Assembly (NCBI GenBank): GCA_017934955.1
Contig: JAGBIO010000024.1
Span: forward strand, 14,550 to 78,549
Source: Clostridia bacterium
GTDB lineage: Bacteria; Bacillota; Clostridia; TANB77; RGIG9151
Length of the DNA stretch: 64,000 nucleotides
Direction: 5' to 3'
Shown: one piece after another, positions 4,004 through 52,888 of the stretch
Position numbering within the stretch: position 1 is the first letter of the stretch
How the letters are laid out: each line of letters begins with the position of its first letter
Translations under genes and position numbers: made by a program
Notes under the pieces: model-generated
What the model saw: the letters and a program-made list of their open reading frames with translations, nothing else
The model's database searches: none
Told to the model about the DNA's origin: nothing

Positions 4004-4127
4004 CTTAACTCCTCCTCTTGCTACAATATATTTCACAACATCACTATTTTAACACAAAACAAAAAAAATTACCACTTTCGCGGTAATTTTATTGCAATTC
4101 AGGTTCAACCCTATTTCTCAGTCTTTT

Positions 4128-4197
4128 GTAGGGACAGCATAAATGCTGTCCCTACAATCCATCTTCTGTACGGACAGCATTCATGCTGTCCTGCTTT
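4128..4197. repeat. REP-like doublet (family A)
   Basis: TGTAGGGACAGCATAAATGCTGTCCCTACA is fully symmetric, with GTAG on both sides. It is followed by cTGTACGGACAGCATTCATGCTGTCC. Confidence 0.8.
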
Positions 4198-4216
4198 CTG
4201 CCTATTTTCACTCCAC

Positions 4217-8295: not shown

Positions 8296-8450
8296 ATAGT
8301 TATTATTCAGACTATATCTCCTATAATACCGATACACCCATTGTAGGGACAGCATTCATGCTGTCCTGCTTTTTGCCTTTTCTGTGGACAGCATAAATGC
8401 TGTCCCTACACTATTTATGCTATTTCTATAAATTTAAGTCTGAATAGTAC
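8296..8450. mobile_element. MITE-like element: REPIN (inverted REP doublet) flanked by ~12-bp terminal inverted repeats TATTCAGACT...AGTCTGAATA
   Basis: Core TGTAGGGACAGCATTCATGCTGTCC...GGACAGCATAAATGCTGTCCCTACA with outer inverted repeats TATTCAGACTATA / TTAAGTCTGAATAGTA. The same architecture recurs at 12300-12460, 17330-17460, 17490-17630, 32935-33060 and 46130-46250. Confidence 0.7.
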
Positions 8451-8500
8451 CGTTATATAGGCAAAATCTTCAACTTTTCCTATATAAGAAAAAAAGGGCT

Positions 8501-8755
8501 TTAAGCCCTTTTTTCTTGTATTAGTTTTAACTTTTTCGCTAATTTCATATGTTTAATCGCATACTCCCGTTTCATTGCTTCTTCCTTCGTTGAAAATTCC
8601 TCAAAATAAAGCAACTTCACCGGGCCTCGTCCTTTTGTGTATTTCGCACCTTTTCCTTCATTATGAGCTTTTACCCGCGCTTCCACATCAGTAGTCCAAC
8701 CGGTATATAAACTCTTATCCTTACATTCTAAGATATACACAAAGTTTCCTTTCAT
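8501..8755 (-). CDS. GIY-YIG nuclease-domain protein (UPF0213/YazA-like, COG2827)
   Basis: 84 aa with YILECKDKSLYTGWTTDVEARVKAHNEGKGAKYTKGRGPVKLLYFEEF, the classic stand-alone GIY-YIG family signature. Confidence 0.8.
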   Translation of the reverse strand: MKGNFVYILECKDKSLYTGWTTDVEARVKAHNEGKGAKYTKGRGPVKLLYFEEFSTKEEAMKREYAIKHMKLAKKLKLIQEKRA

Positions 8756-12299: not shown

Positions 12300-12460
12300 T
12301 AAAGAGATAGTTACTGATCAGACTTAACAACTTATTATTTTCGCTAAAGCCTTGTAGGGACAGCATTCATGCTGTCCTGCATTCCGCATTTTCTGTGGAC
12401 AGCATAAATGCTGTCCCTACACTATTTATGCTATTTCTATAAATTTAAGTCTGAATAGTA
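12300..12460. mobile_element. MITE-like REPIN element (family A) with AGTCTGA-type outer inverted repeats
   Basis: TGATCAGACTTAACAA...TTGTAGGGACAGCATTCATGCTGTCC...GGACAGCATAAATGCTGTCCCTACA...TTTAAGTCTGAATAGTA. Confidence 0.7.
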
Positions 12461-12469
12461 ACAAGAGAG

Positions 12470-12610
12470 AACAAAAGTGTTTTGCGCAGGCAAAACACCT
12501 GCGCCGAACGCGAGTTGCGTAGCAACATTCCTTTCGCGTGAGTGTGCTTCCCTGCGGAGCGTTTTTTGTTGTATAGGCAAAATCTTTGATTTTTCCTATA
12601 CAACAAAAAA
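12470..12610. repeat. ~140-bp composite structured repeat (family E), copy 1 of 3
   Basis: AAAAGTGTTTTGCGCAGGCAAAAC...GCGAGTTGCGTAGCAAC...TGTATAGGCAAAATCTTTGATTTTTCCTATACA with several internal hairpins. Near-identical copies lie at 40985-41125 (opposite orientation) and 46113-46128 plus 46255-46400. Confidence 0.75.
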
Positions 12611-12640
12611 ATCCTCCGGTATCTCTACCGAAGGATTTTG
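12604..12640 (-). terminator. Rho-independent terminator of the rpsF-ssb-rpsR operon
   Basis: On the minus strand, AAAATCCTTCGGTAGAGATACCGGAGGATTTTTTT is a hairpin plus T-run, immediately after the rpsR stop. Confidence 0.5.
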
Positions 12641-13971: not shown

Positions 13972-14190
13972 AGCTGTAAAAAAACTGCCTCAGGAAAATA
14001 AAATTTTCAAAACAATGACGGAGAACCGGCAAGTACAAACGGATAAGGAATGGGTAAACTCAACACGAGGTTGAGTTTAGCTTACCCCTGCCATGGACGG
14101 CAGATGTAAGCGGCCCATTCCGTTTCATTTTGTACTCCGGTTTGTAGTCCCTGTTTTGAAAATTTTATTTTCCTGAGGCAGTTTTTTACA
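13972..14190. repeat. ~210-bp element bounded by 35-40-bp perfect terminal inverted repeats with a highly structured interior (candidate MITE or structured ncRNA)
   Basis: Left arm CTGTAAAAAAACTGCCTCAGGAAAATAAAATTTTCAAAACA (13972-14012) and right arm TGTTTTGAAAATTTTATTTTCCTGAGGCAGTTTTTTACA (14148-14190) are perfect reverse complements. The interior has nested helices CCGGCAAGTACAAA/TTTGTACTCCGG and AAGGAATGGG/CCCATTCC and hairpins GGTAAACTCAACACGAGGTTGAGTTTAGC and CTGCCATGGACGGCAG. Confidence 0.5.
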
Positions 14191-32904: not shown

Positions 32905-32934
32905 AAGAAACGTTACTGTTCAAACTTAAAATTA

Positions 32935-33060
32935 TAAAAATGGCACAAACACTGTAGGGACAGCATTCATGCTGTCCTGCATTCCGCATTTTCTGCGGAC
33001 AGCATGAATGCTGTCCCTACAAGGCTTTAGTGCAAATAATAAGTTGTTAAGTCTAACCAG
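32935..33060. mobile_element. MITE-like REPIN element (family A)
   Basis: CTGTAGGGACAGCATTCATGCTGTCC...GCGGACAGCATGAATGCTGTCCCTACAAGG...TTAAGTCTAACCAGTAAC. Confidence 0.7.
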
Positions 33061-33065
33061 TAACA

Positions 33066-38043: not shown

Positions 38044-38164
38044 TCTATCCATCCTTTCCAATCATATTCCAATACATTATTTTATCACAAAAGCCAACAC
38101 ATTTCCACACTTCTACATAAAATTTTAACAATAAGTGTTACAGGTCAAAATTAAAATCGCCACA

Positions 38165-38402
38165 AATATATTGTAGGGTCACAATTCATGCTATCCTGCC
38201 TTTCTGTCTTTTCTGTGGACAGCATAAATGCTGTCCCTACACCATTTGTGCCATTTTCTACATTTGAAAAATACAGGCGTACGGACAGCATTCATGCTGT
38301 CCTATTTTCCAACATTCGCTCATTTCCCGGACACAATGAATTGTGTCCCTACGGCGATTGTGCCATTATTGTAGGGGACGGCGTCCTCGACGTCCCGATA
38401 TA
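38165..38402. repeat. Cluster of five REP-like hairpins mixing stem families A, B, C and a hybrid
   Basis: ATTGTAGGGTCACAATTCATGCTATCC (a decayed A/B hybrid), GGACAGCATAAATGCTGTCCCTACA, CGTACGGACAGCATTCATGCTGTCC, CGGACACAATGAATTGTGTCCCTACGG and TTGTAGGGGACGGCGTCCTCGACGTCCCG. Confidence 0.8.
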
Positions 38403-38433
38403 TTTGCACCAATTTAAATTGAATATACATCCC

Positions 38434-40952: not shown

Positions 40953-41125
40953 ATGTAGGGGCGAGCACTGCTCGCCCGTTTTTCGGTGTATAGGCAAAAT
41001 CTTTGATTTTGCCTATACACCGAAAAACGCTCCGCGAGGATGCACACTCGTGCGCAAGGAAAGTTGCTACGCAACTCGCACTCGGCGCAGGTGCTTTGCC
41101 TACGCAAAGCACTTTTGTTCCACAA
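40953..41125. repeat. Family-D REP hairpin fused to copy 2 of the ~140-bp composite repeat (family E, inverted relative to copy 1)
   Basis: ATGTAGGGGCGAGCACTGCTCGCCC is followed by TTTTTCGGTGTATAGGCAAAATCTTTGATTTTGCCTATACACCGAAAAA...GTTGCTACGCAACTCGC...GCCTACGCAAAGCACTTTTGTTCC, the reverse complement of the 12470-12610 element at ~85-90% identity. Confidence 0.75.
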
Positions 41126-46112: not shown

Positions 46113-46400
46113 TAAAGAAAAGTGTTTTGCGTAGGTTACAGGTCAGACTCAACCTTTATATGTACCTTAAATGTTTCTCAATCTATTGTAGGGACAGCAT
46201 TTATGCTGTCCTGCTTTTCCGCCTTTTCTGCGGACAGCATGGCACTCAAAGCTTCCCAAGAACGTAGTGATTGGCTGGTTTCGACTGCGCCGCGAGTTGC
46301 GTAGCAACATTCCTTTCGCGTGAGTGTGCTTCCCCGCAGAGCGTTTTTAGTTGTATAGGAAAATCAAAGATTTTGCCTATATAACTAAAAACACTGTCAA
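46113..46400. repeat. Copy 3 of the ~140-bp composite repeat (family E), interrupted by a degenerate MITE-like family-A REPIN
   Basis: AAAAGTGTTTTGCG at 46113-46126 and TGCGCCGCGAGTTGCGTAGCAACATTCC...TGTATAGGAAAATCAAAGATTTTGCCTATATAAC at 46290-46400 match the ends of copy 1. Between them lies TAGGTTACAGGTCAGACTCAACC...ATTGTAGGGACAGCATTTATGCTGTCC...GCGGACAGCATG|GCACTC, a MITE left end plus a truncated second hairpin. Confidence 0.7.
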
Positions 46401-46428
46401 AACTTTTGTTCCAACAGTGTTCTTCCTC

Positions 46429-50339: not shown

Positions 50340-50476
50340 CAGAATGTGGTTTGTAGGGACACAATTTATTGTGTCCTAATTCTAAGCATCTGCCTATTTC
50401 CGGACACAATAAATTGTGTCCCTACAGTGTTTGTGCCGTCATTGTAGGGGACGGTGTCCTCGACGTCCCGATATAT
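50340..50476. repeat. Family-B REPIN (inverted doublet) plus a family-C REP hairpin
   Basis: TTGTAGGGACACAATTTATTGTGTCC (50351-50376) and CGGACACAATAAATTGTGTCCCTACAG (50401-50427) are in inverted orientation, followed by ATTGTAGGGGACGGTGTCCTCGACGTCCCG (50441-50470). Confidence 0.8.
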
Positions 50477-50597
50477 TTGCAACAATTTTAGACTGCCTAA
50501 TATCACTTATTCCACGAAATCACAAATTAGTATGGCTTTTTTTCAAAAAATAATGTATACTATAGATATCTATATTGTGAAAGGGCGTTGATAAAAA

Positions 50598-50965: not shown

Positions 50966-50993
50966 AAACTCGCCCCTACACCATAATATGTAA

Positions 50994-51128
50994 AAAGGTC
51001 ATAAAAGGTTCTAACTATCAGGCCATAAAAGGTTCTAACTATCAGGCCATAAAAGGTTCTAACTATCAGGCCATAAAAGGTTCTAACTATCAGGCCATAA
51101 AAGGTTCTAACTATCAGGCCATAAAAGT
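50994..51128. repeat. Perfect 24-bp tandem repeat, 5 full copies plus partial units (unit CCATAAAAGGTTCTAACTATCAGG)
   Basis: Five identical 24-mers start at 51006, 51030, 51054, 51078 and 51102, with partial units at both ends. The array is immediately followed by the hydrogenase operon terminator hairpin. Confidence 0.9.
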
Positions 51129-51153
51129 GCGGACCTTTTTCAAGGTCCGCACT
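51119..51153 (-). terminator. Rho-independent terminator of the hydCBA operon
   Basis: On the minus strand, AGTGCGGACCTTGAAAAAGGTCCGCACT is followed by TTTTAT, 8 nt after the hydA stop. Confidence 0.55.
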
Positions 51154-51160
51154 CCAAACT

Positions 51161-52888
51161 CTATCGTTCCGTATAATGCGTATGCAACAAATGATGTGCC
51201 TTCTCACTACCCGGCTTTTCCAAATATTCTTCATAAACCTGTTTCACGTAAGGATTTTGATGCGATTTACGATGAGGAAGTCTCTTATCCTCATTATAAA
51301 GAGCCTTTCTTCTCTCTCCCCTAACATCAATTCCCGCTTTCTCTTTTACAATCTTTCTCGGCTGACCGCCACCCATAATACAACCACCCGGGCAAGCCAT
51401 CACCTCAATAAATTGATAATCAACCTTTCCGTCTCTCACAAGTTCCATCAACTTTCTCGCATTTCCGAGACCGCTTACAACCGCAATCTTCACTTTCTGT
51501 CCGGCAATGGAAAGTTCCGCCTCTTTAATCGTCTCATTTCCTCTAACTTCTTCATACTCAATCTTATCAATTGACTTATTCTCTAAAACTTCTGTAACGG
51601 TACGAATTGCCGCTTCCATAACACCTCCGGAAGTACCGAAAATCGTCGCCGCACCACTTGCTTCTCCAAAAGGTTCATCAAACATTTCGTCTTCCAAATT
51701 CTCAAACATGATACCCGACTGCTTAATCATCTTCGCAAGCTCAACCGTCGTAATAACCGCGTCTATATCCGGATACCCTGTTGCACTTAACTCCGGACGC
51801 TCGCACTCAAACTTCTTCGCCGTACAAGGCATCACTGCCACAACAAAAATCTTAGAAGGATCGATATTATTCTTCTTTGCGTAGTAGCTCTTAAGCAAAG
51901 CCCCATACATCGACATCGGAGATTTCGCCGAAGACAAATTCGGAATCAATTCCGGGAAATTATGCTCGGCAAACTTTACCCATCCCGGACTGCAAGAAGT
52001 AATCAAAGGTAAATTTTTACCGGATTTTAATCTCTCGATAAACTCCGTACCTTCCTCCATAATAGTAAAATCAGCCCCGGTATTCGTATCAAACACTTTA
52101 TCAAAGCCCATTCTTCTTAATGCTGCCACCATCTTTCCGGTAACTGCTTCTCCCATCGGTAATCCAAACTCTTCTCCCAAAGCCGCTCTTACGGCAGGAG
52201 CCGTCTGCACAACAACGTGCATTTCCTCGTTATTAATCGCATCCCAAACACGATCAATATTATACTTAATGGTAAGTGCTCCAACCGGACAAACCGCAAC
52301 ACACTGACCACAATTAATACAATTACTTTCTCCAAGCGATTTATTAAACGCCGGCGTAATCTTAGAATTCATTCCGCGATAAGCCACATCAATCGCACCA
52401 ACCGTCTGTACATTCTTACAAACCGCAACACATCTTCTGCAAAGAACACATTTTGAATTATCTCTTACAATCGAAGTAGACAAATCATCAATTTCATCCT
52501 CCGCCGTTCCTTCATATACCACATCGCCGACACCCATACGATCCGCCAAAGCTTGTAACTCACAATCGGTATTTCTCGAACAACTCAAACAATTCTTCTT
52601 ATGATTCGATAAAATCAACTCTAATGTCGAACGCCTTGCATCCATAATCTCCTTGGTATTGGTTCTTACCACAAGACCTTCCGAAACAGGATAAGAACAA
52701 GCCGCCTGAAGTCCACGCGCCCCTTTCACTTCAACCAAACAAATACGGCAAGCGCCAATCTTATTAATCTTCTTCAAATAACACAAAGTCGGTATATCAA
52801 TATTCGCTTGTTTCGCAGCTTCCAACACCGTTAAATTATCTTCCGCTTCTATATTTACACCATCAATCGTAATATTCACTTTTCCCAT
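51161..52888 (-). CDS. hydA: [FeFe]-hydrogenase catalytic subunit HydA (bifurcating type, with N-terminal 2Fe-2S and 4Fe-4S accessory clusters)
   Basis: 575 aa with H-cluster motifs L1 TSCSPGW, L2 MPCTAKKFE and L3 EVMACPGGCIMGGGQP. The N-terminus has a plant-type ferredoxin fold plus two 4Fe-4S CxxCxxCxxxCP motifs. Confidence 0.9.
   Translation of the reverse strand: MGKVNITIDGVNIEAEDNLTVLEAAKQANIDIPTLCYLKKINKIGACRICLVEVKGARGLQAACSYPVSEGLVVRTNTKEIMDARRSTLELILSNHKKNCLSCSRNTDCELQALADRMGVGDVVYEGTAEDEIDDLSTSIVRDNSKCVLCRRCVAVCKNVQTVGAIDVAYRGMNSKITPAFNKSLGESNCINCGQCVAVCPVGALTIKYNIDRVWDAINNEEMHVVVQTAPAVRAALGEEFGLPMGEAVTGKMVAALRRMGFDKVFDTNTGADFTIMEEGTEFIERLKSGKNLPLITSCSPGWVKFAEHNFPELIPNLSSAKSPMSMYGALLKSYYAKKNNIDPSKIFVVAVMPCTAKKFECERPELSATGYPDIDAVITTVELAKMIKQSGIMFENLEDEMFDEPFGEASGAATIFGTSGGVMEAAIRTVTEVLENKSIDKIEYEEVRGNETIKEAELSIAGQKVKIAVVSGLGNARKLMELVRDGKVDYQFIEVMACPGGCIMGGGQPRKIVKEKAGIDVRGERRKALYNEDKRLPHRKSHQNPYVKQVYEEYLEKPGSEKAHHLLHTHYTER

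Follow-up and report, generated by a model that had tools for sequence, protein, structure and literature searches.

A repeat of about 140 bp that occurs three times within one stretch of a Clostridia chromosome, each time in a gap between genes, raises the question of whether it is a small structured RNA, as had been proposed from the letters alone, or a different kind of element. The stretch analyzed here in full (the window, 64 kb) comes from an uncultured Clostridia MAG and is an ordinary chromosomal region by the replication origin, with dnaA, dnaN, recF, ribosomal protein genes, spoIIR and rqcH. No transposase, recombinase, RAYT, TnpA, TnpB, IscB, reverse transcriptase or cas gene was found within its 64 kb, and no RAYT in the 10 kb beyond the window ends. 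The repeat, termed element E below, is a local branch of a large family of units that lie directly after terminators, a scope much wider than the sequence-only reading had given it.

Copies of element E in the window

Element E is a multi-hairpin sequence of about 145 nt, present in the window as one intact copy on each strand and a third copy split by a REP element. Copy 1 (12466-12612) is assigned here to the minus strand, the earlier orientation having been plus. It is composed of a palindrome (hairpin C), a linker, hairpin B, a terminal hairpin A and a T-tract, and two other assemblies of this organism contain it unchanged. Its hairpin C (12562-12610) has a stem of 23 bp, interrupted by a single C.T mismatch and closed by a 3-nt tip; it is built on the core TATAGGCAAAATC-TTT-GATTTTTCCTATA, which is common to at least 118 loci outside the window. 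Hairpin B (12508-12539) has an outer stem ACGCGA/TCGCGT around GTTGC-GTA-GCAAC, with a 7-nt bulge. Hairpin A (12469-12500, minus strand), GTGTTTTGC-CTGC-GCAAAACAC and then TTTTGTTC, contains one compensatory pair and is terminator-like in the terminator scan. The rpsR terminator hairpin (12608-12639, minus strand; 14-pair stem, tail TTTGTTGTAT) leads with its T-run directly into hairpin C, and copy 1 also adjoins a REPIN-like REP doublet (12312-12464) with ends TACTGATCAGACTTAA / TTAAGTCTGAATAGTA, a separate repeat family from E.

Copy 2 (40977-41124, plus strand) is intact and inverted with respect to copy 1, to which it is 86% complementary over 142 nt. Its hairpin C (40979-41027) is perfect and is followed by hairpin B (41050-41081), hairpin A (41091-41112) and a T-tract (41113-41121); before it stands a GTAG-tagged REP hairpin (40955-40977, plus strand; GGGCGAGCACTGCTCGCCC plus GTTTTT), which forms a terminator-like end of spoIIR. 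The main part of copy 3 (46285-46391, minus strand) retains hairpin C (46344-46391), the linker and hairpin B, with 95% identity to copy 1 over 73 nt and 90% over 102 nt, and its terminal hairpin A is destroyed. A REP-containing insertion of 149 bp (46136-46284) has cut off the first 18 nt, found at 46118-46135 as AAAAGTGTTTTGCGTAGG on the plus strand; this detached piece of the minus-strand copy is the left arm and loop of hairpin A, with the T-tract next to it being native according to relatives, and 8 nt of this first hairpin are missing. A fourth site, overlooked in the sequence-only reading, is a degenerate solo hairpin C with no body (8452-8495, minus strand; 32.8 bits with the type I covariance model described below). 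It lies directly after the terminator of a GIY-YIG gene (8501-8755) and adjoins a REP doublet. A walk past the window through its end genes gave no further E copy in about 10 kb (2.3 kb on one side).

The repeat first described, with three copies of about 85-90% identity and two of them inverted, is thus real (86% and 90-95%), save that its third copy is incomplete and split. The hairpins named for it (GTTTTGC-GCAG-GCAAAAC, GTTGC-GTA-GCAAC and a terminal stem) are all present in the copies; the terminal stem of more than 20 bp, taken to be perfect throughout, is so in copy 2 only, since copy 1 carries its C.T mismatch and copy 3 a 1-nt bulge and a G.T pair. Gaps between convergent or tandem genes had been named as its location, and all three prove to be tandem and none convergent. 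A 16-mer of the terminal stem has 7 matches in the window at up to 2 mismatches, against 0.21 expected. The 3-nt stem tip is flipped among the copies relative to the rest of the element, being TTT in copy 1 and AAA in copies 2 and 3. In the hairpin that precedes copy 3 (46392-46428), the loop is an inverted, slightly deleted copy of the end of E (GGAACAAAAGTTTTG compared with GGAACAAAAGTGYTTTG) and may be the remnant of another unit.

As had been reported, a REP adjoins the repeat at every site, including the fourth; yet REP hairpins occur at more than 25 places in the window. GTAG-tagged REP hairpins are very dense across 1004-58791 (for example at 4114-4206, 8339-8449, 12350-12460, 17337-17617, 32926-33064, 38159-38406 and 50356-50479) and fall into at least three sequence families, GGACAGCAT..ATGCTGTCC, GGACACAAT..ATTGTGTCC and GGGGACGGCGTCCTCGACGTCCCC. 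Many form doublets of about 150 bp with the same inverted ends as the doublet beside copy 1, and one such doublet sits in copy 3 directly after GCGTAGG. Because a REP has inserted into E at copy 3, the E and REP families are independent and the REPs moved later; their association looks like two repeat families in one niche, with no functional pairing.

Fold, strand and coding capacity

On both strands E folds much better than its shuffles (-57.1 kcal/mol, z -7.2, and -55.0 kcal/mol, z -6.6). The 43 proposed pairs are paired in 98.3% of cells among the three copies, and five of them differ in both partners, against 0 in slid controls. Hairpin A has one of these five, the outer stem of hairpin B two (in copy 2) and the palindrome two. 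By our own count on the alignment, copies 1 and 2 show 20 differences, 10 of which make up these five compensatory pairs. Two-sided changes among only three copies, with none in the slid controls, argue that the stems are maintained rather than accidental, which agrees with the earlier view that their preservation is not random.

Read on the strand opposite to the one first proposed, E runs from a T-run through the 23-bp palindrome, about 22 unpaired nt, hairpin B and hairpin A to TTTTGTTC. The terminator scan on the minus strand lists hairpin A of copy 1 with this tail as terminator-like; the end of copy 2, read from the sequence and not listed by the scan, is the same hairpin plus TTTTGTTCC, and copy 3 has lost its terminator hairpin through the REP insertion. 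The argument that E is no terminator because a U-run precedes the stem is correct for the terminal palindrome, but it overlooks the first hairpin, which on the other strand is followed by the tail just described. A scan of the copies for sigma-70-type promoters found none within or before any of them. A free-standing small RNA on the strand first proposed is therefore not borne out, since the terminator-like end and the position after terminators both belong to the opposite strand and such a promoter is lacking. The sole wobble pair of E (G.U, in copy 3) favors the strand opposite to the terminator strand.

A coding function was considered and rejected: two open frames cross E, but about a quarter of the residues differ between copies 1 and 2, and neither a start codon nor an RBS is present. 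The frames remain open because of the palindromic make-up of the element, and the protein is not conserved. Hairpin B contains GCGTAGC in all three copies (12514-12526, 41063-41075 and 46296-46308), on the strand opposite to the terminator strand. It fits GCGNAGC, a "mini-hairpin DNA" motif described as extraordinarily stable (PMC13037366).

A widespread palindrome with different bodies

The body of E appears to be local. An exact scan for its core (GAGTTGCGTAGCAAC..GAGTGTGC; hairpin B plus GAGTGTGC) gave 0 matches in 185,579 species genomes, a metagenome collection and IMG/VR, and beyond the window the body was found only in assemblies of the same organism. The palindrome, in contrast, is widespread. 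Its core is 25-29 bp long, TATAGGnAAAATC-nnn-GATTTTnCCTATA, and a slightly shorter core was used for the genome scan. The sequence TATAGGnAAAATCnnnGATTTTnCCTATA occurs in 22 metagenome contigs and one viral contig, and the shorter core at no fewer than 95 loci, with about 50 species-representative genomes among the matches listed. Almost all carriers, Clostridium sp. CAG:508 among them, belong to the uncultured gut Clostridia and come from samples of humans, rabbits and goats; among the matches listed, 14 palindrome loci lie in a single MAG.

Bodies were typed by clustering the sequence beside the palindrome at the 118 or more loci, and the palindrome heads at least four unrelated bodies, that of E and at least three others, each closing with a terminator-like hairpin. 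The type I body (57 flanks) consists of a conserved linker, a 10-12-bp hairpin and GTGGC-GAA-GCCAC plus TTTTCTTAT, a terminator according to the scan. Type II (29 flanks) closes in a long hairpin clamped by GAACAA..TTGTTC. Of the type III flanks (6, with 3 more in reverse register), 5 of the 6 show a perfect extended -10 box, TGCTATAAT, right behind the palindrome, and the body ends in a bidirectional terminator. The E body is that of the window only. In the type III units L051, L068, L071, L098 and L123 the -10 box lies 14 nt past the palindrome and the bidirectional terminator about 85 nt further; type III is thus a candidate expressed small RNA whose putative promoter is overlapped by the palindrome. 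In the terminal module of type II (L043, L058, L070 and L107) the loop of the last hairpin contains a conserved CTAAAAGGTCATAAAATTTTAATCATGCC, and the opposite strand has a 5-codon ORF, ATGATTAAAATTTTATGA.

Palindromes also occur solo or truncated, and units form tandem arrays, some of mixed type (L036, L047, L077, L086 and L118). The viral contig IMGVR_UViG_3300006143_000066 (L034, 1050-1250) has a terminator, then a 50-nt palindrome and a body resembling type II, with the gene of an XRE-like regulator directly downstream; by our own count 47 of the 50 palindrome positions are identical to copy 1. At one locus sampled in different metagenomes, strains whose flanks are identical carry the palindrome center in opposite orientations, TTC against GAA (L017 11684-11712 and L020 6501-6529). 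Judged from these sequences, the hairpin tip is a flip-flop polymorphism between strains, and likewise between the E copies of the window.

Neither blastn nor nhmmer detected homology of the E body to types I-III (E>=0.4), and the type I covariance model scored E at 46.5 bits on the minus strand and 43.2 bits on the plus strand by the palindrome signal only; E therefore has the head and architecture of the family but not the body. Defined by the core TAGGnAAAATC-nnn-GATTTTnCCTA upstream, right after a hairpin and T-run, and by a terminator-like far end, the hairpin-C family includes copies 1 and 2 in every feature, and copy 3 with a 1-nt deletion and its far end lost.

The type I units are numerous enough for covariation to be scored. 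The covariance model recovered 46 full-length units, 41 of them distinct, and in their alignment 94.1% of cells are paired, compared with 81.2% in shuffles. Of 31 pairs, 15 are changed on both sides, with 9 of 11 pairs covarying in the hairpin between linker and terminator (hairpin B) and 4 of 5 in the terminator stem. The covariation score of 0.275 exceeds that of shuffles (0.085; 0 of 500 as high) and of slid partners (at most 0.051). The alignment leans towards structure because it was fitted to the model, and the same swaps are visible in the raw sequences. Pairs of G.U type outnumber those of A.C type by 26 to 16, or by 25 to 6 when the terminal pair of the terminator is left out, an excess that fits folding of the U-tract strand. 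The linker is nearly invariant, and no promoter was found in type I units. Their three hairpins have loops C(GAA)G or C(AAA)G, and many stems hold GCGAAGC, which also fits GCGNAGC.

Position of the units behind terminators

All four hairpin-C copies in the window start directly after a hairpin and T-run that close an upstream gene. Copy 1 follows the rpsR terminator, copy 2 the REP plus GTTTTT that closes spoIIR, copy 3 a hairpin after the DUF234 ATPase gene, and the solo palindrome the terminator of the GIY-YIG gene. In the 98 typed units, a locus-specific GC hairpin and T-run nearly always fills the 55 nt before the palindrome; it belongs to the upstream gene or to the preceding unit. A strict detector, which accepts perfect stems with loops of up to 12 nt and whose misses are by eye mostly imperfect terminators, found a hairpin and T-run in 47 of 83 distinct contexts, compared with 36 of 3000 random positions of the same loci.

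The same gaps in related genomes

Relatives were identified through the RqcH, CorA and DUF234 proteins. At 73-94% protein identity, E is absent from all three sites, and about 50 kb of these relatives' contigs, searched with the covariance model, gave no hairpin C. The gaps are also longer in the window: 541 bp between rpsR and corA, against 231-250 bp in relatives at 92-94% identity; 223 bp between spoIIR and rqcH, against 68-208 bp (filled by a plain terminator or by another, 64-bp tandem repeat); and 442 bp at the DUF234 gene, against 182 bp in a relative. At the copy 3 site the relative has a terminator stem and then TTTTTCTGTTTAAAAT..TTTAAATTTACAT, whereas in the window the last hairpin of E is followed by TTTTCTTTAAAATGTATTTAAATTTACAT. 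Since the relative has that T-tract after its own stem, the T-tract behind E is native, with E placed between it and a terminator-type stem.

In relatives at 92-94% identity (L130 1101-1350 and L132 520-750), a single REP plus TTTTT is the only terminator-like signal behind rpsR, and the window hairpin at that place differs; terminators in this lineage seem to be quickly replaced by repeats. In L003 (6790-6930) and in L004 the spoIIR-rqcH gap, which has E in the window, is taken up by an unrelated 64-bp repeat (CAACAACAAGGTTCCCGGGACCCAACGACGAGCTTGCTCGTTTATGTTGGGTGGGGTTCTTATT) in two tandem copies. A 97%-identical relative (L002, 1-60) has a palindrome but no body in front of rqcH, only 30 nt separating the palindrome from the ribosome-binding site of that gene (CCTATACAAGAACAAATTTCATTG), so that the arrangement of this gap varies even among very close relatives. 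Contigs of close relatives break within the palindrome, that of L002 beginning inside it. No pair of filled and empty sites with near-identical flanks was found, and because the hairpins before the three window copies differ from the relatives' terminators, turnover of the whole gap is an alternative to clean insertion.

Comparison with known families

A search of the whole window against Rfam 15 at the gathering threshold returned TwoAYGGAY only, away from E. At E<=10 the E region gave only weak hairpin noise far below thresholds, and 17 family loci returned tmRNA and tRNA only. No known RNA family thus matched E in this Rfam/Infernal check. Diagnostic sequence strings of the family were absent from the literature in a full-text search. 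E and the type I units had no blastn match in the phage and plasmid collections. The hairpin-C family is large and, being absent from Rfam 15, the literature searched and these collections, apparently undescribed.

The closest descriptive class is that of small structured interspersed repeats: REP/BIME, BOX and related sequences (PMC3733652, PMC3049150, PMC3184786, PMC2229807). A REP is a GC-rich palindrome of 20-40 bp that carries a GTAG or CGTC tag (PMC3733652). Like REPs, BIMEs and REPINs, E is short, multicopy, intergenic and hairpin-forming, lies at gene 3' ends, shows paired changes in its stems and can act as a terminator-like end. It differs from them in its 145 nt, AT-rich head, multiple hairpins and lack of a tag, and in having a head common to many species but a body that is not; hairpin C itself is AT-rich, 46-49 bp long and untagged, and the true REPs of the window are distinct sequences. 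With BOX, RUP, SPRITE and other stem-loop repeats (PMC3049150, PMC2267715, PMC3184786) it shares a modular, small, interspersed and non-coding nature, stable predicted folds and, for many of them, co-transcription with neighbors. The sequence comparison with these repeats was made through the Rfam and BLAST collections only. We know of none reported with a strict position after a T-run, a conserved head with interchangeable bodies or a terminal terminator of its own.

Group IIC introns are found in one orientation just downstream of terminator motifs, that is, an inverted repeat and T's (PMC1702495), and E likewise lies in one orientation directly after a terminator motif. By this analogy they would be the closest functional counterpart of E, which fails to resemble them in every structural respect: it is 145 nt long, has no ORF and gave no Intron_gpII or other group II match at E<=10. 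Group IIC introns are larger ribozymes, usually with a reverse-transcriptase ORF.

Palindrome-associated elements and guide RNAs derived from IS200/IS605 lack terminal inverted repeats, of which E shows no convincing pair, and resemble E in their hairpin ends, in likely single-strand recognition and in having small non-autonomous derivatives. They differ in that the ends of E-family units carry unrelated hairpins, no TnpA, TnpB or IscB is nearby, and no target tetranucleotide is kept beyond the T-run. Integron attC arrays are likewise arrays of heterogeneous short units, and the conserved imperfect palindrome between their units probably works as a folded single strand of DNA, but most hairpin-C units are solitary behind housekeeping genes, their cargo is non-coding, and no integrase and no match to the R/L box pattern was found. 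As to MITE features, E has no convincing terminal inverted repeats; type I has an imperfect match of 9/11, by eye, between ATAGGAAAAAT and the reverse complement of its 3' end, ATAAGAAAAGT. As to target-site duplications, T-runs lie on both sides of the units and are indistinguishable from the target's own T-tract. A likeness of type I to a Cas9 sgRNA (stem, "nexus", hairpins, terminator) was considered and set aside, as there is no cas gene, array or guide position. Retrons, integron attC sites, dif/Xer, protelomerase and invertase sites were ruled out on geometry (11-3-11, free center, no partner gene).

In 830 kb of family loci we found no parent IS with matching ends and no lone half-palindromes bracketing an ORF, which would have been a sign of an autonomous element. 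Within 2.5 kb of the 118 loci, the neighboring proteins were enriched only for orthologous housekeeping clusters, with no recurrent transposase, recombinase, reverse transcriptase or Cas protein.

Origin and function of the hairpin-C units

The best-supported reading, to which we give about even odds, makes E the subfamily of one lineage within a broader family of miniature, non-autonomous, terminator-targeting mobile DNA elements in gut Clostridia, which possibly carry an RNA cargo. We infer mobility from the lack of E in the relatives' shorter gaps, the junction at copy 3, the position rule, the head shared by at least four bodies in about 50 species genomes and a viral contig, the solo copies and the mixed arrays, together with the lack of a promoter in E, the decay of copy 3 and the breaking of relatives' contigs inside the palindrome. 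A body found nowhere else, joined to a widespread palindrome, fits the spread of a head with changing cargo. Counted against mobility is that the loci searched contain no transposase, autonomous element, clear target-site duplication or terminal inverted repeat. The fallback offered in the sequence-only reading, a mobile-element-derived RNA of another kind, is closer to these data.

A unit consists of the conserved AT-rich palindrome, a variable structured body and a GC hairpin, and lies in one orientation directly behind the stem and T-run of an intrinsic terminator. Its T-rich first arm keeps a T-tract behind the upstream stem, and a T-tract also follows its own last hairpin. The far end thus resembles a new terminator and may offer a new target, which would explain the tandem arrays. 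The palindrome may be the end that an enzyme from elsewhere in the genome or beyond it recognizes in trans, probably in folded, single-stranded form, and the inner hairpins may be kept because the unit is transcribed by read-through or, in some types, as cargo RNA. The terminators at the unit ends, the G.U excess of type I and the extended -10 box of type III argue for an RNA-level function of at least some units, and some bodies at least, those of type III, look like expressed RNA cargo. We offer more tentatively, and with some doubt, the bolder proposal that hairpin-C units are a new type of miniature transposon that homes to terminator T-tracts, remakes the terminator at its far end and shuttles structured RNA genes among gut Clostridia and their phages, driven by an enzyme that would read the palindrome as a folded single strand.

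The main rival reading, which we regard as rather doubtful, is that the units are first of all a multicopy small-RNA gene family, transcribed from the palindrome to the unit's own terminator, with hairpin C as a 5' protective or processing structure such as an RNase III site on read-through transcripts. The terminator-like 3' ends of all types, the strong covariation of type I and the five compensatory pairs of E agree with such a family, as do the bias for G.U over A.C pairs on the terminator strand, the nearly invariant type I linker and the -10 box right after the type III palindrome. However, neither E nor type I has a promoter; that of type III lies downstream of hairpin C, which would leave the palindrome outside the RNA; the palindrome tip is flipped from copy to copy and, at one locus, from strain to strain; relatives have no E at the corresponding sites; one copy of E is disrupted; and its only wobble pair favors the other strand. 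The missing promoter, the disrupted copy, the flipping tip and a body confined to a single species make an independently selected sRNA gene unlikely for E in this genome. The small-RNA and mobile-element readings overlap, and are compatible if the RNA is cargo.

Less probable, and in our judgment unlikely, is that the units are host-beneficial cis elements of 3' ends, similar to REP/BIME, which would strengthen termination, insulate the following gene or shield the 3' end of the upstream mRNA, and which would have spread by recombination rather than transposition. Their fixed position and orientation behind upstream genes suit this role, each unit gives the upstream stem a T-tract plus a second terminator, and REPs act as terminator-like ends in the window and in relatives. 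Termination, however, needs no very long, sequence-conserved palindrome and gains nothing from several tandem units, the bodies are wholly different between types, and close relatives manage without the element. It is more improbable still that hairpin C is a duplex-DNA operator, an 11-3-11 palindrome bound by a dimeric regulator of the downstream unit. The half-sites are conserved around a free 3-bp center, the type III palindrome overlaps the -35 position of a good promoter, and the viral copy precedes an XRE-like gene; but the 5-10 bp outside the core change and yet stay complementary (TTGTA/TACAA, TTGAA/TTCAA, TAATA/TATTA), which is not required of an operator, one internal position is usually mismatched on one arm only, and E and type I have no promoter after the palindrome. 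The small RNA first proposed, running from the GTTTTGC hairpin to the terminal palindrome, is most improbable: that strand folds well and carries the G.U pair of copy 3 and the GCGTAGC mini-hairpin motif (PMC13037366), but it has no promoter, no terminator and an A-run after the palindrome, and the whole family is oriented oppositely relative to the upstream terminators.

If the mobile-element reading is correct, the units would be without precedent known to us among small DNA repeats, group IIC introns excepted, in their precise targeting of terminators in one orientation. Their heads, conserved in about 50 species, and differing bodies would then form a natural system that moves small RNA modules around genomes. 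Should the units instead be genes for RNAs, the 41 or more distinct type I sequences would by themselves form a well-supported new class of structured RNA. In practice, the units break metagenome assemblies, in which contigs end within the palindrome, and their added terminator-like signals confuse the prediction of operons and sRNAs in uncultured gut Clostridia.

Other repeats and RNAs of the window

The TwoAYGGAY RNA (RF01731) at 14016-14150 on the plus strand scored 50.6 bits against a gathering score of 43, and is bracketed by a 51-nt inverted repeat (13979-14029 and 14137-14187). At 50972-51151, just downstream of a [FeFe]-hydrogenase gene (51161-52888), lie six head-to-tail units of 24 bp (AGGCCATAAAAGGTTCTAACTATC).
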